DNA of 64,000 nucleotides from assembly GCA_963703315.1 (NCBI GenBank), contig OY969811.1, forward strand, positions 1,888,001-1,952,000, read 5' to 3'. This DNA comes from an uncultured cyanobacterium. GTDB taxonomy: Bacteria > Cyanobacteriota > Cyanobacteriia > Pseudanabaenales > Pseudanabaenaceae. The notes under the pieces were generated by a model. It did not search any database and was not told the origin of the DNA. It worked only from the letters and a program-made list of their open reading frames with translations. Positions within the stretch are counted from its first letter, which is position 1. Each line of letters opens with the position of its first letter. This document shows positions 16,158 through 27,407 of this stretch, piece by piece. The translations under genes were made by a program, and so were the position numbers.

Positions 16158-17324
16158 ATGCATGATTGGATTGTCATTGGTGCTGGCATCACAGGCATCT
16201 CGCTAAGTTACGAACTGCAAAAGGCAGGCTTTTCGGTATTGCTAATTGAGCAACATCAAAAGCTAGAGGGTGGCAGTAGCCTCGGCTATGGCGGTATTTC
16301 CTACTGGTCTGGCACAACCACGCTCACGCAACAACTTTGTCAAGAAGGAATTGCGCGTCAACGCCATTTGTCGGATGAGTTAGGGATAGATACCGAGTTT
16401 CGCGAAATTGATTTGTTATTGACGATAGAACCTGATGTCGATCCCCACTCAATTCTCTCGCAGTATGTTAATTGCGCGATCGCCCCAACTTTTTTAACTC
16501 CCCCAGAGTCTCATGAGCGTGAACCATTGCTCAATCCACAGGGGATTGGCGGAGCATTACTATTTCCCCATGCTCATATTAATCTCAATTCCTTTGCCAA
16601 AGCCCATAGCCAAGCTTTAGAAAGATTAGGCGGAAAAATTATTTATGCCAAAGTTGAGAAGTTATTGATTTCAGGCGATCGCGTGACAGGTGTAACCACT
16701 GAGCAGGGTGACTTCCATAGCGCTCAGGTTGTCGTTTGTGCAGGAGCCATGTCTCGCGCTCTTCTCAAAGCATCAGGGATTAATGCCCGAATCTACTATA
16801 CCCATGCGGAGGCGATCGATACGGAACCCGTTGATCTAGAACTACGCGCAATGGTAATGCCTGCGGATACAAAGCGTTATCAGCTAGAAGCGGCAACGAC
16901 AAATTCTGATCAAGACCAAATTTGGGACATTGCAGGACAGGAACTATTGCCTCCTTCCGTTGATGCTGGAGCAATTCAATTTGGCGATCGCTCGATTAGA
17001 TTTGGACAACTTAGCCGCGTGTTAACCGATCCCTACGCAGCGATCGATCCTATTCAAAGTGAAGCTGCTATTCGAGCAAACGTTAGTAAAATCCTGCCTA
17101 AAGTTGCCAAACTGAAGGGTAAATGGAGGCATTGCCTTGTTGCCTTTAGTAATGACAGCTTACCTCTCGTCGGTGCAGTTAGGGAATATGCCAATCTGCA
17201 TTTATTCTCAGGTTTTACAAGTCCGACAGTGTATGTACCACCCCTATCTCAAAGGTTTGCTGCCTACGCAAAAGGTAATCCCGACAACGTAATTCCTTTA
17301 CTATCTCCAAATCGGTTTATATAG
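16158..17324 (+). CDS. FAD-dependent oxidoreductase (DAO family)
   Basis: VIGAGITG Rossmann motif, D.LPLVG. Confidence 0.85.
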   Translation: MHDWIVIGAGITGISLSYELQKAGFSVLLIEQHQKLEGGSSLGYGGISYWSGTTTLTQQLCQEGIARQRHLSDELGIDTEFREIDLLLTIEPDVDPHSILSQYVNCAIAPTFLTPPESHEREPLLNPQGIGGALLFPHAHINLNSFAKAHSQALERLGGKIIYAKVEKLLISGDRVTGVTTEQGDFHSAQVVVCAGAMSRALLKASGINARIYYTHAEAIDTEPVDLELRAMVMPADTKRYQLEAATTNSDQDQIWDIAGQELLPPSVDAGAIQFGDRSIRFGQLSRVLTDPYAAIDPIQSEAAIRANVSKILPKVAKLKGKWRHCLVAFSNDSLPLVGAVREYANLHLFSGFTSPTVYVPPLSQRFAAYAKGNPDNVIPLLSPNRFI

Positions 17325-17429
17325 CAAAAAGATGAGTGGCGGCGCTTCGCGCCGCCACTCATCTTCTGGTTTTATGTCATAAGCAAAACTTGCACTTCTA
17401 TATGAAGATCTAGCTTTACCTAGTAACCA

Positions 17430-17470
17430 ACAAACCAATTAGCATCATGCGCTACATACTAAGCGATCGC
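17430..17470 (+). repeat. Direct repeat B, copy 1
   Basis: ACAAACCAATTAGCATCATGCGCTACATA is identical at 21980-22008; core CAATTAGCATCATGCGCTACA-N8-GATCGC also at 24072-24106. Confidence 0.9.
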
Positions 17471-17643
17471 GTAATCTTCGATAATCGATTGGTTTCAATT
17501 TTCGCATCCTTTAGTAATTCATTCCAATTATCGGGAGGATTACCACTTTCGAGCATCTTTTGGAAAACTCGATATGCATCTGTGCTGCTTTCATAGGCGC
17601 GTTTATTACCCTCATCATTGACCCAAGCAAAAACAATAATTTT
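17452..17643 (-). pseudogene. C-terminal remnant of a YhaV-family toxin
   Basis: KIIVFAWVNDEGNKRAYESSTDAYRVFQKMLESGNPPDNW, near-identical to the intact copy at 22617-23111. Confidence 0.85.
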
Positions 17644-17824
17644 GTTTATTAGAGCAAAACATTCACCAGTAAAGCTAGACGTGCAAACAGATGTTGGTGA
17701 ATTAGTAGAAGATTATGATGATCCCAAAGAAAAAATCTTAGAAGATCTTCGTCAGTCTTTAGAAGATGCTAAAGCAGGTCGAGTTCACGATATTTCTGAA
17801 CTTTGGGATGGAATTGATGTCTAG
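17642..17824 (+). pseudogene. C-terminal remnant of a type II antitoxin
   Basis: LFIRAKHS matches LFVRAKHS of 22284-22556; ends EDAKAGRVHDISELWDGIDV and overlaps a toxin start. Confidence 0.7.
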
Positions 17825-17945
17825 TGAAGATCCCAAATTGAAGATTCAGTTTACAGATGTTTTTAAGCGTCAAGTTCGAGATTTAGCAAGGCGCTATAGA
17901 CGTATTAAATTAGATATTCAACCAGTTTTGGATCAACCTAGTTAA
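17817..17945 (+). pseudogene. Truncated RelE/HigB-family toxin
   Basis: MSSEDPKLKIQFTDVFKRQVRDLARRYRRIKLDIQPVLDQPS*, N-terminal part only. Confidence 0.65.
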
Positions 17946-18225
17946 GAAAGCTTGGAAAAAAGATCCTTTTTCTTTTATCGAGAAGTTCATTCCGATGTTC
18001 TTTAATACAAATCTTAAAGATACTGCAAATAAGGCAGGAAATTACTAAGATAAATTTCATCTTAAAACACAAGAACAATAAAGACGCTTAGTGTCTTTAT
18101 TGTTCTTGTGATCATAAATCGTAGGATTTTCTGTATTTTTTGTCTTGATTTGCTAAAATTATTGAAAGGAATGAAGAACTCCGCCTCAATCTGACAGGGT
18201 ATCAAATTCTTTTTTACTAAAATGT

Positions 18226-19366
18226 CTTAGTACAGGACAAAAAGTTGCAAAAGTAGAGAGGAAGGGGTTTTATAAAAGATAACTACATCATTCGTAAAAC
18301 CCCTATGAAAGAGATTAACCTATTCCGCGAAAAATTGCAGCAACATCTGCACTGGAATGCAGCAAGACTAGCTTTTGTGTCTATATTCTTAATCGCACTA
18401 ATGCGAGTAAAGACAGTAAATCTAGCGGAAATCGCCACAGGATTTAGCGGTAAAGCCAAAGTCGAATCGCACTATAAGAGATTACAGAGGTTTTTCCGAG
18501 ACTTTGAAGTGGACTATGAAAGCATCGCGCTCATGGTTGTAAAAGTAATGCAAATACCCGAACCATGGATAATTTCCATAGACCGCACCGATTGGAAATT
18601 CGGTAAGACAGTGTTTAACGTGCTGACACTGGGGGTAGTGCATCACGGTGTCGCCTTCCCCTTGGTATGGATAATGCTGGATAAAAAAGGTAATTCAAAC
18701 ACTCGTGAACGCTGTGAATTGTGGAATCGATTTCTAGAAATATTTGGAGACCGCAAAATCGACTTTTTGACCGCAGACCGAGAGTTTGTGGGTGAAGAAT
18801 GGTTTGATTATTTGCTGTGTGACCCATGTACCCCATTTAGAATCCGTATTCGCAAAAACACCTTGCTTGACGATGGGCAAAAAGAACTACGGGCTGATGT
18901 TTGTTTTCAAGATCTCCAAGTTGGTCAATTGAAAGTGTTGTCCAAACCCAGAAAAGTTTGGAACCATTGGCTTAGTATAGCCGCTATGCGTCTGAAGGAT
19001 GGCGAGTTGTTAATTGTCACTACCGCTCATGACCCTGATACTGCTATTTCTGACTATGCCAAGCGTTGGGCTATTGAAACTTTGTTCGGGTGTTTTAAAT
19101 CCCGTGGCTTTTGTTTGGAGTCCACTCATCTTCAAGATTCGGAGCGCCTCTCTAAACTTATTGCTTTGCTTACTCTGGCTTTATGTTGGGCTTTTTCTTC
19201 GGGGCTTTGGCTTGCTCAATTAAACCCTCTCAAGCCTAAAAAGCATGGTCGTCTACCTAAAAGCATTTTTCGCCTTGGTTTTGATTCCCTCCGTCACTTC
19301 ATCTTTGACCTTCACATCAATTTTGAAGCCTTCTTTAACTCCATTAAATTTTTGTCCTGTACTTAG
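18226..19366 (+). mobile_element. IS4-family insertion sequence, 1141 bp
   Basis: TIRs CTTAGTACAGGACAAAAA / TTTTTGTCCTGTACTTAG (1 mismatch); 9-bp TSD CTAAAATGT at 18217-18225 and 19367-19375. Confidence 0.93.
18305..19366 (+). CDS. IS4-family DDE transposase
   Basis: IDRTDW, ADREF, YAKRWAIETLFGCFKSRGF (YREK-type motif). Confidence 0.93.
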   Translation: MKEINLFREKLQQHLHWNAARLAFVSIFLIALMRVKTVNLAEIATGFSGKAKVESHYKRLQRFFRDFEVDYESIALMVVKVMQIPEPWIISIDRTDWKFGKTVFNVLTLGVVHHGVAFPLVWIMLDKKGNSNTRERCELWNRFLEIFGDRKIDFLTADREFVGEEWFDYLLCDPCTPFRIRIRKNTLLDDGQKELRADVCFQDLQVGQLKVLSKPRKVWNHWLSIAAMRLKDGELLIVTTAHDPDTAISDYAKRWAIETLFGCFKSRGFCLESTHLQDSERLSKLIALLTLALCWAFSSGLWLAQLNPLKPKKHGRLPKSIFRLGFDSLRHFIFDLHINFEAFFNSIKFLSCT

Positions 19367-19493
19367 CTAAAATGTATTTACGCCCCATAGCATCGGGGTA
19401 TTTGTCCTCGTTGGTAAAATAAAACTGTAGTTAATTTAATACTTCATTCACAATTCCATTCACTTTTATGATAATCATTAGGAGTCCTAAACT

Positions 19494-19865
19494 ATGAATT
19501 CCGCTCAAGTTGCATCATTAGCTTTAGATATTTTACTCCAGATTTCGAGCAAGGTAGGGGATGGTGCATTTAAAAAAATTGGTGATCAACTTGTTTCTGT
19601 TCTTGAGAATAAACTTAGAAGAAAGCTTTTCCCAGATCGTTTACAAAATAATCCTGAAATACTAAAAGAAGTTGAACAGTCTATTGCCCAAAAATGTAAC
19701 GAAGATGCTCAATTCTTAGAAAAGTTGAAGAATCTAGTGGAAGATTGGAATATTCAACAATCAAAATATGTCAGTCAAAACACCGAAAAAGGTGTGAATA
19801 TGGTTAATAATATTAGCAGTGGAGGCAAAGCTGTAGGTCAAGAGATTAATAACTACTTTCGTTAA
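19494..19865 (+). CDS. Small helical protein, Bell-domain-like, with an N/G/Q-rich tail
   Basis: AGGAG RBS; ..K.GDGAF.KIGD.L...L..K..., ED..F...L..LVE, tail GVNMVNNISSGGKAVGQEINNYFR. Confidence 0.6.
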   Translation: MNSAQVASLALDILLQISSKVGDGAFKKIGDQLVSVLENKLRRKLFPDRLQNNPEILKEVEQSIAQKCNEDAQFLEKLKNLVEDWNIQQSKYVSQNTEKGVNMVNNISSGGKAVGQEINNYFR

Positions 19866-20757
19866 TCTTGGAGATACAGATTTAGAAGATACAGATTTAG
19901 AGCCATTGACACGATGGCAGAAAGTTACTACATACTTTAAAGCACTATCTTTTCTATCTTTAACACTTCTTCGATGGGCATTCTGGGGATGGAAGGCTGA
20001 CTACGCATTTCCTTTCTCTGCAATATCTGCATTAATATTTAGTTGTATCAATGGGGAACTTCCTAAGAATATAAATCGTTTACAAAGAAGGCTAAGAAAC
20101 AAGGAAATTATATTAACTAATCCTTCTCTGGAGCGTATTCAGAAACTTTACCGTCTCGAAAATCAAGGACTTGTATGCAAGGAAGTTATTGATATACTAG
20201 GATTAAATGGAGAAAAACTCGAAAAAATTGCATCAGTTCTTCAAGAATTAGATAACAAAACAAGAGAGATTCAACAGGAACTAGAACCTTATAAACCACA
20301 AAGATATAAAGATTTTTCTAAACTTCAAGATCGTTCATGGTCTTTTAATAAAAATCAAAATGATTATGTTGAGCTACAAAAGCTAACTAAAAAGCTTTCT
20401 AATGAGATGAAAGCTAGCAAAAATCCTGCTCAGATTTTAAAAGACGAGCGTAACACTTTCCTTGAAGACATTAGATCTAAAAAGATAATACTCTCAGCTT
20501 CAGGACTAAACCTCGCTTATCAATTTTTTAATTTAATTGCTAGTACAATTCCTGAAATAAGGTTTGATGGTAAATATCTAGGGAACCTTAAAGCAACAAA
20601 ATATCACTTTCATCCTCAATGTAGGGATTGGCAAAGTTTAGTTTATAGAGTCTTATATTGTGATGACAAGGAGATAATTGTTAGTAATACATCGCAAGAT
20701 TTCGAGGGCAAGCTTGGGTCTTGTTACTCTTGTCAAGGAAAAGGGAAAACAGAATAG
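19861..20757 (+). CDS. Hypothetical membrane/coiled-coil protein with a C-terminal His/Cys motif; no ATG near the 5' end, possibly reached by +1 frameshift
   Basis: Frame open from 19837; YLGN...KYHFHPQC...CYSC. Confidence 0.55.
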   Translation, partial: VNLGDTDLEDTDLEPLTRWQKVTTYFKALSFLSLTLLRWAFWGWKADYAFPFSAISALIFSCINGELPKNINRLQRRLRNKEIILTNPSLERIQKLYRLENQGLVCKEVIDILGLNGEKLEKIASVLQELDNKTREIQQELEPYKPQRYKDFSKLQDRSWSFNKNQNDYVELQKLTKKLSNEMKASKNPAQILKDERNTFLEDIRSKKIILSASGLNLAYQFFNLIASTIPEIRFDGKYLGNLKATKYHFHPQCRDWQSLVYRVLYCDDKEIIVSNTSQDFEGKLGSCYSCQGKGKTE

Positions 20758-20989
20758 TTGGTAGTAATAGATTTAAAGATTATGATTTAGTCTAAATAAC
20801 TTACTTAAAAAAATATAGGGATTTGTCATAACCAAATCGCAAAAACAGAAGGAAGACTTAAGAAATGAACATCATGTAGACAACCCCTTGATTGCCTAAA
20901 GCATCATATGGCAAAATATACATCCCAAATCAAACGCAAAATTAATGCGATTTTCAGGCTAAACAGTATACACTAAATTACTCTTACTT

Positions 20990-21071
20990 CGTCCGACTAG
21001 TTTGCACACTCAAATATGCAACTAGCAGAATGCAAAAAACAAGTTTTTCCCGTCATAGGCGCACGAGGCTA
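20990..21071 (+). repeat. Direct repeat A, copy 1 (copy 2 at 21752-21821)
   Basis: CGTCCGACTAGTTT(G/A)CA(C/A)ACT(C/T)AAATAT, 25/28 identical, followed by a weaker similar block. Confidence 0.75.
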
Positions 21072-21086
21072 AGATTTGCTAGGAAT

Positions 21087-21443
21087 TTAACTCGACGCTC
21101 TAGCAAAGCGTACCTGTTGCTCTGTAACTACCACGAAATTATTTGGTAACTGCTCAATATAAGCATCTAATAATCGCTGTAAAGCATTGATCTTGTTAGC
21201 ATTGCGCTCATCATCCAGTCTCAGCAAAACAACACCCCGATGTAGTTTTCTCTCCCAATAAACTTTCTCACCAAAATCCTTATCGCAAGTGATTAAAATC
21301 CAACTTTCATCAATAGCTTTTTGAAGAATAGTGTCATCATCAGTACCCCTCGCCTCTTCATAAACTGAGAAAACCTCATGATTCCGCTCTCTTAACCAAC
21401 GCGCTACCACAACACCAGTATTTTCATCAACTAAAAATCTCAC
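21087..21443 (-). CDS. DUF5615 PIN-like toxin
   Basis: FLVDEN, DD.IL, LIT.DKDFGE, HRGVVLLRL. Confidence 0.88.
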   Translation of the reverse strand: MRFLVDENTGVVVARWLRERNHEVFSVYEEARGTDDDTILQKAIDESWILITCDKDFGEKVYWERKLHRGVVLLRLDDERNANKINALQRLLDAYIEQLPNNFVVVTEQQVRFARASS

Positions 21444-21689
21444 CTAAGCAATCTCCGCTAGAGGCATAAAACTAGCGCTCTCCAAGGTGCGAGAGGCAAA
21501 TAGTAAACAAGCTCTTATATCTGCTTCAACTAGTCCCTCATATTCTTCTAAAATCTCGCCAACAGTTGCACCATGAGCAAGCAAATTTAAAATATACTCA
21601 ACAGTTAATCTTGTCCCTTTGATAACTGGCTTTCCAGTCATAACACTAGGACTTGTAGAGATACGAGACAGCAAATTCTTTTCTTTCAT
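21444..21689 (-). CDS. DUF433 antitoxin
   Basis: VMTGKPVIKGTRLTV...EILEEY..L...DIRACL. Confidence 0.9.
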   Translation of the reverse strand: MKEKNLLSRISTSPSVMTGKPVIKGTRLTVEYILNLLAHGATVGEILEEYEGLVEADIRACLLFASRTLESASFMPLAEIA

Positions 21690-21979
21690 GTTCTTTAAAC
21701 ATTTAGTTTAAATAATCATAATTATTCTAACAGTAGCCTAATATTAATCGCCGTCCGACTAGTTTACAAACTTAAATATCCATAAAAAGCAAGGCTTACC
21801 CCTCATTGATGCAAGATGCTAGCATGACAATAATTCAGCCTTAGCAAGGCTGATGCTCATGACAGTACAAATTTCTGAATCCCTTACTGTCAGTGAATCA
21901 GATTCTAACGTGTGATCCCCATATCTCAAAGCGATTGGTAAGCAAGGAAAAATATTTGCTTCATCTTTTTGATTCTTTC

Positions 21980-22020
21980 ACAAACCAATTAGCATCATGC
22001 GCTACATATTAAAAGATCGC
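21980..22020 (+). repeat. Direct repeat B, copy 2
   Basis: 29 bp identical to 17430-17458; GATCGC at the same offset. Confidence 0.9.
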
Positions 22021-22029
22021 TGCTACTAG

Positions 22030-22287
22030 CTACTGGTAAACATCTCTACGGTGACCAATTTTAAGCACCAAAACCAGTAGTTGACTATCCTGAATAGAGT
22101 AGATGATGCGATAGTTCCCAACCCGAATGCGCTAGAGGCTATCTTCGCCTATCAGCTTGACCACACCATCAGGACGTGGAACATCAGCTAAAGCATCGAT
22201 CTTTATTTTTATCCTTTGCTGCTCTTCAGTGGACAGAGATTTTAGCTGTTTGGCAGCTTGCTTCACAAACTCAATGCGATACGTCAT
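22030..22287 (-). pseudogene. RelE/ParE-family toxin with an internal TAG
   Basis: MTYRIEFVKQAAKQL...EDSL*RIRVGNYRIIY...IGHRRDVYQ; stop at 22132-22134; ATGA overlap with the antitoxin. Confidence 0.85.
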
Positions 22288-22556
22288 AGCCCAATTTCAG
22301 CCTTTAGACTTTCCCAAGAGATAGTACCTTCAGAATCAATAGATGCTAGAGCCGCTTTAGCATCTGCGATATCCTCAAGATCCTCATCAGCTTCATAGCT
22401 AACAGCATCTATATTCAAATCATCTTGAGAATGTTTTGCCCTCACAAACAAAAGAAAATCCAACACTTCGCTTAGCACATAATCTGAAGTTTGTTCGATT
22501 TCTTGGATTAGCGATCGCCTAACATCGCTTTGAGTAGAAGTTTCTGTGGTTAACAT
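22284..22556 (-). CDS. Type II antitoxin (DUF2281-like N-terminus)
   Basis: L.QEIEQ..D..L.EVLDFLLF, EDLEDIADAKAAL, ISWESLKAEIGL; coupled to relE. Confidence 0.75.
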   Translation of the reverse strand: MLTTETSTQSDVRRSLIQEIEQTSDYVLSEVLDFLLFVRAKHSQDDLNIDAVSYEADEDLEDIADAKAALASIDSEGTISWESLKAEIGL

Positions 22557-22616
22557 GGCTGCACATCTCTGATATATCTAACCATTTACATCTTAACACC
22601 TCTCAAAAGCGCATAA

Positions 22617-23111
22617 CTACTTGCCTTTGATTACCTTCTCCAATCTATGAGCCTTACCTTTTGCATCCCTTAATAGCTCACTCCAATTATCTGGAGGATT
22701 ACCACTTGCAAGCATCTTTTGGAAAACTCGATATGCGTCTGTGCTGCTTTCATAGGCGCGTTTGGTATTTTCATCATTCACCCAGACAAAGACAATAATT
22801 TTACTCTCTAAGTGATATCTAAAAACCAATCGATATTGCTGAAAAAACTTTGCTCTGAACCAGTGTTTATAAGCATCTCCAAGAGTAGAACCCTGTCGAT
22901 ATTCACTGCGAGTAGGATCTTGGGGAATTACTTCAAAGGCTAATTTAGCGATCGCCGCTAAACGTTTGGCAGCATTTTTCTTTTGATAATCCTGCGGATA
23001 CTTCTGACGTAAAGTTTCAACTTGGGTTAGCAGATCTTCTAATTGATCGAGAAAGAGCGAATGGGCAAATATGTTCCATCCATTGATTACTAACGGCTCA
23101 GTGACGGACAA
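22617..23111 (-). CDS. yhaV: YhaV-family toxin
   Basis: YRQG.TLG..YKHWFRAKFFQQYRL.FRY, WVNDE.TKRAY. Confidence 0.92.
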   Translation of the reverse strand: MSVTEPLVINGWNIFAHSLFLDQLEDLLTQVETLRQKYPQDYQKKNAAKRLAAIAKLAFEVIPQDPTRSEYRQGSTLGDAYKHWFRAKFFQQYRLVFRYHLESKIIVFVWVNDENTKRAYESSTDAYRVFQKMLASGNPPDNWSELLRDAKGKAHRLEKVIKGK

Positions 23112-23113
23112 AA

Positions 23114-23440
23114 TTATTCATCCTCATCAGCAAGTGGTGCATCAAGATCAATCACAACTTCCGAAACTAGGGAATGCACTCGACTTAACAAATCAGAGCT
23201 AATTGCTTGTATATTTTGGGGATTTTCAGCAATGTCTTGGGCAAGAAAATTGAGGAATTTGGCAATTATCGGGTCATTCTGCTCAACCCGCGAAATTAAC
23301 ACACTGCCGTCAGGTTGGATTGTGTAGCAAATTTTATCGCGTTTACTCAAGCCAAGTGCTTTGCGAATTGGTTCGGGAACTGTGGTTTGATAGCGATCAG
23401 TTAAAGTTGATTCTGCGTAGGGAGCTAAGATTGTGAACAT
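23114..23440 (-). CDS. prlF: PrlF/SohA-family antitoxin
   Basis: ESTLTDRYQTTVP..IRKAL.L.K.DKI.Y, FL.FLA.DI, DLDAPL. Confidence 0.92.
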   Translation of the reverse strand: MFTILAPYAESTLTDRYQTTVPEPIRKALGLSKRDKICYTIQPDGSVLISRVEQNDPIIAKFLNFLAQDIAENPQNIQAISSDLLSRVHSLVSEVVIDLDAPLADEDE

Positions 23441-23601
23441 AGCGACCTCGAAAAATTAAGTATACTTGTAGCAAAAAAGACTACAGTTTGTATCATTAAA
23501 GTAATGCAAATGCATTGTCTCTGTCAAGCCTAAGCTTAATAACCGCAAATTCTATATCTACAAGATTTTTCCCTATCAAAAGCCAACTAGGAGACTATGG
23601 G

Positions 23602-24033
23602 ATGACAGTATCAACTGAAAACCGACAAAAAGCAATTCAGCTAGTTGAGCAACTTCCCGAAGAATCTCTAACTGAAGTGATTGATTTGCTTAACAATTTA
23701 CATCAACGGACTAGTCAAGCTAATCCCTTGCCATCAGATAATTCTGAAGAGAAATTATTACAAGTCATTCATCGAAAAATCTCGCGGGAAGATCAAGATA
23801 GGCTCGATTACTTACGTCAACTCAATGAGGGCGGTGACGATATGACAGCAGCAGAATATCAAGAACTGTTAGATTTTGTGTCTCGTATTGAAAAGGATGA
23901 TGCAGAAAGAGTATCAGCAATTTTTCAATTAGCCCAAATCCGTAAAGTCGATCCACTGAGCTTAATTACCCAGTTTGCGCCACAAAAACGAGGCGATCGT
24001 GCCATCTTTAAGACGTTTACTAATTTTGGCTAA
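23602..24033 (+). CDS. Orphan antitoxin-like protein
   Basis: AGGAG RBS; QLPEESL.EV.D, EEKLL..I, EYQELL, ER..A...LAQIR; no partner gene follows. Confidence 0.55.
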   Translation: MTVSTENRQKAIQLVEQLPEESLTEVIDLLNNLHQRTSQANPLPSDNSEEKLLQVIHRKISREDQDRLDYLRQLNEGGDDMTAAEYQELLDFVSRIEKDDAERVSAIFQLAQIRKVDPLSLITQFAPQKRGDRAIFKTFTNFG

Positions 24034-24071
24034 CCTTCATCCACCAATTTTGTAATTTTTCGATAGGTAGA

Positions 24072-24106
24072 CAATTAGCATCATGCGCTACACATTGCAC
24101 GATCGC
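24072..24106 (+). repeat. Direct repeat B, copy 3, overlapping a plausible carB promoter
   Basis: CAATTAGCATCATGCGCTACA-N8-GATCGC; TTGCAC(24095)-N16-TAAAAT(24117). Confidence 0.8.
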
Positions 24107-24155
24107 CATGACGCTATAAAATGTAGTGCGAGTTACCTACGAAATACAAGATAAT

Positions 24156-27100
24156 ATGCCCCGCCGTAACGACATCCAAAAGATTTTGCTGATTGGCGCT
24201 GGTCCGATCGTGATCGGTCAAGCCTGTGAATTTGACTACTCAGGAACCCAAGCCTGTAAAGTTTTACGGGACGAGGGCTACTATGTGATCCTAGTTAACT
24301 CCAATCCTGCGACGATCATGACTGATCCCGCTACTGCCGATCGCACTTATATTGAGCCGATTACGCCCGAAGTGGTTGCCCAGATTATCGAGAAAGAGCG
24401 TCCTGATGCGATCCTGCCGACGATGGGCGGACAAACAGCACTGAATACGGCGGTGTCCCTCGCAAAAATGGGTGTATTGGAGAAATATGGCGTGGAGCTA
24501 ATCGGCGCAAAACTGGAAGCGATCGAGATGGCGGAGGATCGCAAGCTATTCAAAGAGGCGATGGAACGGATCGGCGTTGCCATGTGTCCATCAGGCTTGG
24601 GGACAACGATGGAAGAGTCCCGTGCGATCGCCCATGAAATTGGTACTTATCCCCTAATTATTCGTCCAGCCTTTACGATGGGCGGCACTGGTGGCGGCAT
24701 CGCCTACAACCAAGAGGAATTTGAAGAAATTTGTGCCTCTGGTCTGGAGGCTAGTCCTGTATCGCAAATCCTGATCGAGCGATCGCTGATTGGCTGGAAG
24801 GAGTACGAGCTAGAGGTGATGCGCGACTTAGCCGATAACGTGGTGATTATTTGCAGCATCGAAAATATTGATCCGATGGGTATCCATACGGGGGACTCGA
24901 TTACGGTGGCTCCTGCTCAAACCCTCACGGACAAAGAATATCAGCGCTTGCGTGATTATTCGATCAAGATTATTCGTGAAATCGGCGTAGAGACAGGCGG
25001 CTCAAATATCCAGTTCTCGATTAATCCCGAAAATGGCGAAGTGGTCGTCATTGAAATGAATCCCCGTGTATCGCGTAGTTCGGCTTTAGCATCGAAAGCC
25101 ACAGGCTTCCCGATCGCTAAGTTTGCCGCGAAACTTGCTGTGGGCTATACCCTTGATGAAATTTCCAACGACATCACCAAGAAAACTCCTGCCAGTTTTG
25201 AGCCGACTATTGATTATGTGGTAACGAAAATCCCTCGCTTTGCCTTCGAGAAATTTCCGGGATCTGAGCCAGTTCTCACCACGCAGATGAAATCGGTCGG
25301 TGAAGCAATGGCGATCGGGCGGACTTTTCAAGAGTCATTCCAAAAGGCATTGCGATCGCTTGAAGTTGGTCGCTTTGGCTTTGGTGGCGATCGCGAAGAA
25401 ACCTTACCCGATCTCGATAAAATCAAATACAGTTTGCGCGTACCGAACCCTGATCGCGTTTTCTCGATTCGTGATGGATTTTTGTCAGGTTTGTCAGTGC
25501 AAGCCATTTTTGAATTAACCAATATTGATCCTTGGTTCTTACAAAAAATGCGTGAAATTACAGATGTAGAACTTTCGCTCAAAGGTCGCAAGCTTGATAG
25601 CGTTCTCAAGGAAGAGATGCTCGAAACAAAACGTATGGGCTTTAGCGATCGCCAGATTGCTTACCTCACAGGCACAAATGAAGATGCTGTGCGTACCTAT
25701 CGCAAATCCCTTGGTATCATTCCCTCCTACAAAACCGTTGATACCTGCGCGGCTGAGTTTGAAGCGCTCACTCCCTATCACTATTCCACCTACGAAGAAG
25801 AATCAGAGATTTTACCTTCCACTAAGCGCAAGGTGATGATTCTTGGTGGTGGACCAAACCGCATTGGGCAGGGGATTGAATTTGACTATTGTTGTTGTCA
25901 TGCCAGCTATGCTTTACGGGCGGCTGGTTTTGAGACGATCATGGTTAACTCCAATCCTGAAACCGTTTCTACTGATTACGACACTAGCGATCGCCTCTAT
26001 TTCGAGCCATTGACTCGCGAAGATGTCTTGAACATCATCGAAGCGGAACAGCCTGAAGGTGTGATTATTCAATTTGGTGGACAGACTCCCCTCAAACTTT
26101 CTGTGCCTTTATTGCGATATCTCGAAGAGAATAACTCCACTACCAAAATTTGGGGAACTTCACCCGATTCCATTGATATTGCTGAAGATCGTGAACGCTT
26201 TGAAGCAATCTGTCAACAATTGGGAATCTTGCAGCCAAACAACGGCTTAGCGCGTTCTGAAGAAGAGGCAGTGGTAATCGCCCAACGGGTAGGCTATCCT
26301 GTGGTCGTGCGTCCTAGCTACGTTCTCGGTGGTCGTGGCATGGAAGTCGTTTATTCCGATGCTGAACTCGAAGATTATATGCGTCGGGCGATCATCATTG
26401 AGCCAGAACATCCTGTATTAATCGATCATTTCCTCGAAGGCGCGATCGAAGTTGATGTGGATGCGATCGCCGATCAACAGGGCAATGTTACCATTGGCGG
26501 CATTATGGAACATATCGAAGAAGCAGGTATTCACTCAGGCGATTCCGCTTGTTCGATTCCCACTTTCTCTTTACCCGCCGAAGTTCTCACGACGATTCGC
26601 ACATGGACAATTAGCCTTGCCAAAGCGCTAAATGTAATTGGTTTGATGAATATTCAGTACGCCGTCCAGTTGAATAACAATAATCCCAAAGAGAGCAAAG
26701 TCTTCATCCTTGAAGCCAATCCCCGCGCATCACGTACTGTACCTTATGTCAGCAAAGCAATTAACGTTCCCCTCGTTAACTATGCCTCACGCATCATGTC
26801 AGGTGCTACCCTTGCCGAACTTGGTTTAACAGAAGAGGTAATTCCCAAACATATCTCAATTAAGGAAGCTGTACTTCCCTTTGCGAAGTTTGCAGGAACC
26901 GATACGATTTTGGGACCTGAGATGCGATCAACTGGCGAAGTTATGGGCATTGATACTGAATTCGGTCGTGCCTTTGCTAAGGCTCAAATTGCCGCAGGAA
27001 CTCATCTTCCATTAGAAGGAACTGTATTTGTCTCGGTCAACGATCGCGATAAGAGCGGCATTTCCACCATAGCCGAAGCCTTTATTGAACTTGGCTTTAA

Positions 27101-27407
27101 GGTTGTGGCAACGGAAGGAACTCACAAGATCCTGCGCCGTAACAGCATTGACTCGAAGCAAGTTCTCAAGGTTCATGAAGGTCGTCCGAATATTAGTGAC
27201 GTGATGAAAAATGGTCAAATTCAATTGATCATTAATTCTCCTAGTGGCGAAGAAGCCAAGGTTGATGGCAAGATGATTCGCCGCACGGCACTGGCTTATA
27301 AGATCCCTGTAATTACCACCCTCGCTGGTGCTAAGGCAGCGATCGCCGCCATTCGTTCTTTACAAACTGACTCAATTTCTGTCACAGCACTGCAAGATTA
27401 CGCTTAG
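24156..27407 (+). CDS. carB: Carbamoyl-phosphate synthase large subunit
   Basis: MPRRND.., [17 protein letters not shown], duplicated ATP-grasp, MGS domain. Confidence 0.98.

Follow-up and report, generated by a model that had tools for sequence, protein, structure and literature searches.

Direct repeats in a Pseudanabaena toxin-antitoxin array are probably copies of a carB-upstream element, with extra copies likely jointed at adjacent HIP1 palindromes

A stretch of 64,000 nucleotides from an uncultured cyanobacterium of the Pseudanabaenaceae (contig OY969811.1, positions 1,888,001 to 1,952,000; hereafter the window) contains an array of toxin-antitoxin (TA) modules interrupted by three copies of a 21-bp core, the last lying just before carB. 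Are these repeats the att/dif-like target of a recombinase acting in trans, as an initial annotation of the window had proposed, or did they arise in another way? We compared the window and the 4.57-Mb genome that contains it (G000) with loci of relatives (L-numbers) assigned to genera (g-numbers), and with contigs from sequencing runs (X-numbers). The repeats are probably copies of a conserved element upstream of carB, and the extra copies were probably left as scars by insertions that were jointed at an adjacent highly iterated palindrome (HIP1, GCGATCGC). The TA modules likely piled up by recombination at HIP1 rather than at the site of a dedicated integrase. The copies and the gene that follows them are (N8, eight nucleotides of any kind):

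17430 to 17470, plus strand: copy 1, with the core at 17436-17456, N8 TACTAAGC and a perfect HIP1 GCGATCGC at 17463-17470
21980 to 22020, plus strand: copy 2, with the core at 21986-22006, N8 TATTAAAA and GATCGC
24072 to 24136, plus strand: copy 3, the resident element, with core, N8, GATCGC (24101-24106), the -10-like box TATAAAAT (24115-24122) and GTA-N8-TAC (24123-24136)
24156 to 27407, plus strand: carB, presumably carbamoyl-phosphate synthase large subunit, named after the initial annotation and the sequence type

The core, CAATTAGCATCATGCGCTACA, was observed exactly and on the plus strand at 17436, 21986 and 24072, and any match to it appeared in 0 of 100 shuffles. The direct orientation first described was confirmed, with the starts of copies 1 and 2 corrected by one base from 17435 and 21985. 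A search of the whole genome tolerating up to 4 mismatches returned these three copies and no further one, and the motif is not a high-copy repeat. Also confirmed were the 29 bp identical between copies 1 and 2, the N8-GATCGC after every core, and the reverse complement of the core, GTAGCGCATGA-TGCTAA followed by a variable part. Copies 1 and 2 do lie at the 3' ends of minus-strand toxin genes (the stop codon of a yhaV remnant falls within the copy-1 core, and the relE stop is 10 bp from copy 2), and copy 3 overlaps what is likely the carB promoter, its core being 22 nt from the -10-like box.

With at most one mismatch allowed, the core was observed in 44 of 47 congeners; the three genomes without it are 73-94% complete. 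It was also observed in three related genera (g28, g31, g34), but in none of 24 genomes from other families, and the dyad was not found before carB in 25 other-family loci with a located carB start. Most genomes held a single core copy, while extra direct copies were verified in 10 genomes. Where carB follows, the spacing between core and -10-like box was 22 nt in all four genera (g1, g28, g31, g34), and substitutions across relatives spare the TAGC-N7-GCTA dyad, the centre of which is conserved. This fixed spacing together with the spared dyad is the pattern of a promoter element or factor-binding site, and suggests that the core is an upstream element of carB, likely part of its promoter. 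A single carB match was found in 59 of 61 cyanobacterial genomes. Similarity to relatives ends at the carB stop codon (27407), and the downstream core-gene neighbours of carB form 22 clusters in 35 loci, which argues that carB and its upstream element move as a unit. Upstream, the core-gene neighbours form 21 clusters in 34 loci; given the equal variability on both sides, the variable upstream neighbours are not specific to the site. A single control gene, argG, was fully syntenic, and non-operon tandem neighbours were kept in 22 of 51 pairs.

One candidate factor that may bind such an element is NtcA, with the consensus GTA-N8-TAC about 22 nt before the -10 box. The core reads GCA-N8-TAC about 22 nt before the -10-like box, one mismatch from that consensus, with a conserved spacer that is atypical. 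A perfect GTA-N8-TAC box (24123-24136) directly follows the carB -10-like box and is kept in most congeners, a position that would suit repression. Rfam gave no match over any site copy at E up to 5. An arginine-regulon operator was considered and rejected: the best dyad match outside repetitive extragenic palindrome (REP) sequences lies before argG, but directly upstream of a conserved RNA-like block and at the -10 position of that block. This block, presumably signal recognition particle RNA, was observed directly upstream of argG in all 30 loci fetched (L099-L128). Several other candidate matches were set aside, including a single viral match (L048) and two metagenome loci (L080, L095) with unrelated flanks, taken as chance matches, and two word families with 3 mismatches together with the matches in L054 and L055, none of them before carB. 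Loci L033, L074 and L077 are duplicates of other loci. One record titled Oligoflexia (L024), probably mis-binned, has the site together with a sequence that matches the start of carB at 90%. Separately, the extra copies in L040 and L047 follow the carB upstream region as far as the last base ahead of the start codon, where the sequence changes, and L079 switches a few bases earlier, possible cases of promoter capture.

If the core belongs to carB, the position at which the extra copies depart from the carB-side sequence bears on how they arose. Eighteen extra copies were resolvable, with copies at contig ends (L022 and the second copy of L029) left out. Twelve of these lose carB-side similarity at the HIP1 adjoining the core, 9-14 bp beyond the 21 bp and outside the dyad spacer. 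In five others, similarity continues for approximately 45-95 bp after the core and stops within the promoter or the first codons of carB; in the remaining one it ends inside the core at an 8-bp microhomology, ATCATGCG, with the start of a PD-(D/E)XK gene. Eight distinct partners were observed at HIP1, one of them added by metagenome loci. Homologs of these partners lacking the site were scored for HIP1 at the joint (at most one mismatch), and it was present upstream of c1 in 4 of 5, at c17 joint A in 7 of 10, at c17 joint B in 1 of 4, at the relE flank in 3 of 5 (one being a decayed site copy), and at a thioredoxin locus in 1 of 1. For all five partners with an informative site-free homolog, HIP1 therefore lies at the joint in both of the sequences joined. 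Both c17 joints cut within the gene, and the same relE joint as at copy 2 has a perfect HIP1 in L073. A contig of run X6 passes from the left side of copy 1 to the carB promoter, switching within HIP1 (17464 to 24101), from which we infer that copy 1 is an older carB-proximal copy. Copies joined to one and the same module have different N8 sequences, and the N8 is not linked to the right-hand module, contrary to a fixed crossover in the dyad spacer. Since homologs without the site have a HIP1 of their own at these joints, the crossover likely took place at HIP1, and the dyad appears to be a passenger that likely restores a split promoter.

These joints bear directly on the proposal of an att/dif-like site, in which the dyad would be the target of the single Xer-like tyrosine recombinase of the genus and modules would integrate like pdif modules or tandem islands. 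We consider it improbable. A symmetric dyad with a conserved centre and mostly one copy per genome is what such a target could look like, the core resembles the XerC arm quoted in the initial annotation at 8 of 11 positions, and one conserved Xer-like gene was found in 46 of 47 congeners; moreover, a crossover inside an invariant core would leave no sequence trace. However, joints fall at HIP1 or in the carB promoter, the N8 is untied to the right-hand module, and the spacing to the carB -10-like box is fixed. With dnaA as a proxy for the origin (GC skew was uninformative), the site lay at 0.09, 0.23, 0.13, 0.02, 0.06, 0.16 and 0.16 of the chromosome from dnaA in the 7 of 7 chromosome-scale contigs, a range of 0.02-0.23, and never opposite it. 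Using one Xer-like query, gene and site were observed together in g1, g28 and g34, the site only in g31, and the gene only in g29, g33 and g36, where the site was not found. Published dif and pdif sites are described as 28 bp, with two 11-bp arms, a conserved XerD arm and a more variable 6-bp centre (PMC6449649). The core does not share this architecture, its centre being nearly invariant and the XerD-side arm being the variable part. The pdif modules of Acinetobacter likewise hold TA pairs between short repeated sites in an array without an integrase, but are titled as flanked by inversely oriented sites (PMC6449649), whereas copies within a locus here are all direct, have joints outside the dyad, and are not at the terminus. 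Prediction of dif failed in cyanobacteria (Kono et al., PMC3025954), a point in favour of an unrecognised Xer site; on position and joint mapping the present site was rejected as a cyanobacterial dif, and it does not fill that gap.

The sole Xer-like recombinase (L049:6115-7638; 1.754 Mb in G000) has 507 aa with an extra, partial catalytic-like N-terminal domain, and is conserved across the genus. A 13/16 look-alike approximately 115 bp before its gene was rejected, as it scored poorly and falls in a small open reading frame (ORF). No serine resolvase was found in G000, and a 419-aa frame at G000:C1:4367693-4368154 has a TetR-like N-terminus, judged by eye, and a weak phage-integrase-like domain.

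Integrons and clusters of attC sites lacking integron integrases (CALINs) grow their arrays in a polar manner, and islands that target tRNA genes carry a replacement fragment of the target. The carB arrays share this polar growth. They could be imagined as an integron remnant, with the site as an attI-like or secondary target of an IntI acting in trans. IntI matches occurred in 27 of 47 congeners, and many copies, read on the minus strand, have a GTT triplet after the dyad. Against this, no IntI match was found in G000, IntI lay at least 150 kb from the site where it could be placed, modules are on both strands, and a crude scan of the arrays tested returned 0 attC-like hairpins (null mean 0.4). 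The joint mapping already largely refutes the idea, and we regard an integron remnant as very improbable. As in tRNA-targeting islands, duplication extends toward the side on which a split target has to be restored, but no island integrase is present here, and the restored target is an upstream element, not a tRNA. The same attC scan gave two plausible hairpins elsewhere in G000 (G000:C1:653036 and 2747821), a genome without an IntI match, and a search for the conserved left-arm motif or an attC-like structure gave no convincing genome matches.

HIP1-ended repeats were not confined to carB. A total of 8,189 HIP1 octamers were counted in G000, a HIP1-rich cyanobacterium. After excluding the CRISPR (clustered regularly interspaced short palindromic repeats) region and hairpins, 46 of 100 locus-specific non-coding direct repeats ended at HIP1 with at most one mismatch (null mean 4.6, maximum 13, 200 draws). 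Many G000 repeats have HIP1 at both ends, many flank pairs of genes the size of a TA module, and 88 places in this genome hold relatives of the modules in the carB array. As separate observations, arrays of small two-gene modules were seen on G000:C1 at about 61 kb and at 1.370, 2.190, 2.732-2.748, 2.973, 3.468, 3.671, 3.727, 4.014 and 4.510 Mb, the modules being parted by local direct repeats that end at HIP1, with the word GCGATCGCTGTTTGAT at several of them, and a CRISPR-like array at G000:C1:380900-384600 has unusually heterogeneous repeats containing a HIP1-like word.

The region upstream of carB is a hot spot of gene gain, where different species share TA and small-gene modules in a varying order but with orientation kept. 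Within 2.5 kb of carB, in 20 loci with both flanks, 44 small ORFs were upstream and 14 downstream, and orientation relative to the site was kept in 318 of 320 shared segments. Module order varies, e.g. the c10/HNH module lies to the left of yhaV-prlF in L041 but to its right in the window. Breakpoints are scattered over hundreds of bases left of carB, and in one clade approximately 100 bp left of the core is conserved, with cargo varying further out. Site copies mark some old insertion joints, but many modules change without a copy at their edge, and in the window the relB-yhaV and prlF-c10 intervals contain none. The suggestion that TA cassettes are repeatedly added here is thus upheld as to accumulation and reshuffling, not as to a recombinase acting at the dyad: the visible joints of the extra copies lie at HIP1 or in the carB promoter, and not in the dyad spacer. 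The remaining features of the array are:

16158 to 17324, plus strand: FAD-dependent oxidoreductase (DAO family), the left host gene
17319 to 17375, no strand assigned: REP-like hairpin of an abundant genome repeat, where run contigs show many loose ends
17452 to 17643, minus strand: 3' remnant of a second yhaV
17640 to 17937, plus strand: truncated RelB-like antitoxin and RelE-like toxin pair (clusters c1 and c61)
18226 to 19366 (18217 to 19375 with flanks), plus strand: IS4-family insertion sequence (IS) element, with 21-bp inverted repeats and a 9-bp target duplication, CTAAAATGT
19494 to 20757, plus strand: two ORFs (123 and 283 aa)
21087 to 21689, inside 20990 to 21782, minus strand: DUF433 and DUF5615 (PIN-like) TA-type pair
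22030 to 22287, minus strand: RelE/ParE toxin with an in-frame stop at 22132-22134
22284 to 22556, minus strand: RelB-like antitoxin
22617 to 23440, minus strand: intact yhaV toxin and prlF antitoxin, without a site copy at either edge
23599 to 24065, plus strand: c10 gene (weak DUF2281) and 3' remnant of an HNH gene

Both blocks between the copies had been described as made largely of TA genes. This holds for block 2, where TA genes take up about two-thirds (approximately 90% counting the c10/HNH module) in the form of relE with its internal stop, its antitoxin, the intact yhaV-prlF pair and the c10/HNH remnant. Block 1, however, is only about one-quarter TA, the remainder being mostly the IS4-family element and the two unassigned ORFs, for which no convincing Pfam, NCBIfam or PADLOC family was found. 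The IS4-family element is a later insertion into the array, as runs X4 and X5 contain an empty joint (18216 to 19367) that lacks both the element and the 9-bp duplication. Those two runs also contain a joint from 21733 to 20989, with 14 extra letters, at a separate 31-bp direct repeat (20990-21020 and 21752-21782) that brackets the DUF433/DUF5615 pair; its ends are not at HIP1, and as an exact 14-mer it is confined to this spot in the genome. The joint of copy 1 with the yhaV remnant recurs in L015 and L041, and intact versions of the c1/c61 pair occur in L028, L056 and L069. In many relatives, including L032, L037, L045 and L069, relE-relB directly adjoins the carB-side copy, and run X1 showed no alternative letter in the relE region (22030 to 22556). 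Unlike in the window, yhaV-prlF in relatives has a site copy at its edge. The HNH remnant lacks approximately 370 bp compared with L023, and the oxidoreductase had no match upstream of the site in the relatives' loci compared.

A crossover at the promoter HIP1 would sever the upstream element from its -10 box. Surviving insertions would then mainly be those in which the incoming piece came from the carB-upstream region of another Pseudanabaena and ended with its own copy of the element; alternatively, a left joint outside the element would leave no duplicate. With each element-carrying event the old copy would stay on the left and the new one would come to lie beside carB, in direct orientation. 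This need to restore a severed element would account for the direct orientation, for growth on one side only, and for the exchange of the same modules between carB loci. The likeliest route would be natural transformation, with carB or a shared TA gene pairing by homology at one end and HIP1 or another microhomology closing the other, and such a homologous anchor with a short joint would fit breakpoints that are scattered and, in one case, lie at a microhomology other than HIP1. The older part would later be worn down by deletions, IS insertion and point decay. While the joint positions, the HIP1 of the partners, the carB spacing, the shared modules and the genome-wide repeats were observed, promoter function, the order of events and the transformation route are our reconstruction. 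Open frames for the competence genes comEC and dprA are present in G000 (genes only). The nearest neighbours switch along carB, a mosaicism compatible with co-transfer of donor DNA, and four-fold-site divergence in carB was 0.19-0.24 in the first 198 nt versus 0.28-0.56 later, which selection near the start could mimic.

Parts of this route have published precedents. Transformation by a homologous anchor and a short-identity joint is described for pneumococcus, Acinetobacter and Pseudomonas (PMC6382021), and HIP1 raises integration in PCC 7002 (bioRxiv 10.1101/2024.09.10.611283). Excision of smtB flanked by HIP1 in Synechococcus PCC 6301 (Gupta 1993), efficient site-specific plasmid recombination at HIP1 in PCC 7002 (Akiyama 1998) and precise insertion of SDR5 into HIP1 (Elhai 2008) are cited in PMC13756078, PMC4390886 and PMC5861425, the plasmid recombination and the SDR5 insertion in PMC4390886. 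As in these HIP1 cases, the crossover here likely lies in a GCGATCGC common to both partners; what differs is that TA modules were gained naturally and repeatedly at a single chromosomal place in many species, with a host upstream element duplicated in some events. Homology-facilitated illegitimate recombination would, with its long anchor and short joint, explain why the gain is oriented and confined to one side and why breakpoints are scattered, but in Pseudanabaena a genome-wide palindrome would supply most joints.

The same joint position could be reached by another route, in which a dedicated host activity cuts or exchanges at methylated HIP1 and HIP1-to-HIP1 circles carrying the core reinsert at other HIP1 sites with no long anchor. 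The copies joined at HIP1 to non-carB loci, the many G000 repeats with HIP1 at both ends, and the plasmid recombination and SDR5 insertion cited in PMC4390886 are all compatible with such an enzyme. We nevertheless judge it unlikely: 6 of 18 extra copies end off HIP1, one at an unrelated microhomology, breakpoints spread over hundreds of bases left of carB, and with 8,189 sites per genome an unanchored enzyme would need a further specificity signal. Such an enzyme would be most plausible for the copies away from carB. An apparent excised circle, the X2 joint 22607 to 21982, was rejected, as it runs on into the carB promoter and represents the arrangement relB-site-carB. Run X1, which may come from the source sample, showed no joint between the copies, which is not evidence of absence as contigs drop rare forms. 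A bolder form of the idea, which we hold as conceivable though doubtful, is that Pseudanabaena builds integron-like TA arrays without an integrase through a HIP1-directed activity, the palindrome serving as a universal att site and the promoter HIP1 as a self-renewing landing pad. If so, each module would restore the upstream element it displaced, the stranded copies would form an ordered record of acquisition, and HIP1 would have a biological job.

Returning to transformation with joints at HIP1 as the preferred explanation, several observations weigh against it. A perfect HIP1 octamer is present at copy 1 only, copies 2 and 3 having AAGATCGC and ACGATCGC, and copy 3 gave no sigma-70 site when scanned with a promoter consensus. 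Three of the eight partners lack an informative site-free homolog, and linkage of the N8 to the left flank was weak (closer than average in 12 of 17 rows). Over all shared-segment ends in arrays the perfect octamer was found at 20 of 254 (null mean 13.5, maximum 23), not clearly an enrichment, so most module edges are either not HIP1 joints or have decayed. The null for genome-wide repeats takes no account of HIP1 outlasting its surroundings in old duplications. Extra copies at four arrays (L009, L056, L058, L065) are at non-carB locations, and carB cannot have been their anchor. Finally, no contig bridges the oxidoreductase to carB, and the empty allele of the window array was not seen.

Excision flanked by HIP1, plasmid recombination and SDR5 insertion are known. 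We found no paper on HIP1-jointed TA arrays or the carB-upstream element in a search mostly outside subscription literature, and the function of HIP1 is still described as open in PMC5861425, PMC13756078 and PMC4390886. The locus provides natural joints at base level with HIP1 in both partners, some within a gene, and is a ready substrate for testing a role of HIP1 and its methylation in the entry into a cyanobacterial chromosome of foreign DNA that has homology on one side. It also suggests how TA modules may circulate among Pseudanabaena species without integrases, and cautions against taking every short direct repeat around a cyanobacterial island for an att site.

A filled and an empty form of one array were observed beside guaA. 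A 2.6-kb TA array with a site copy is present in G006 (L056:4740-7340) and absent at the corresponding place in G000 (G000:C1:3256040), and a perfect HIP1 lies approximately 10 bp inside its right edge.

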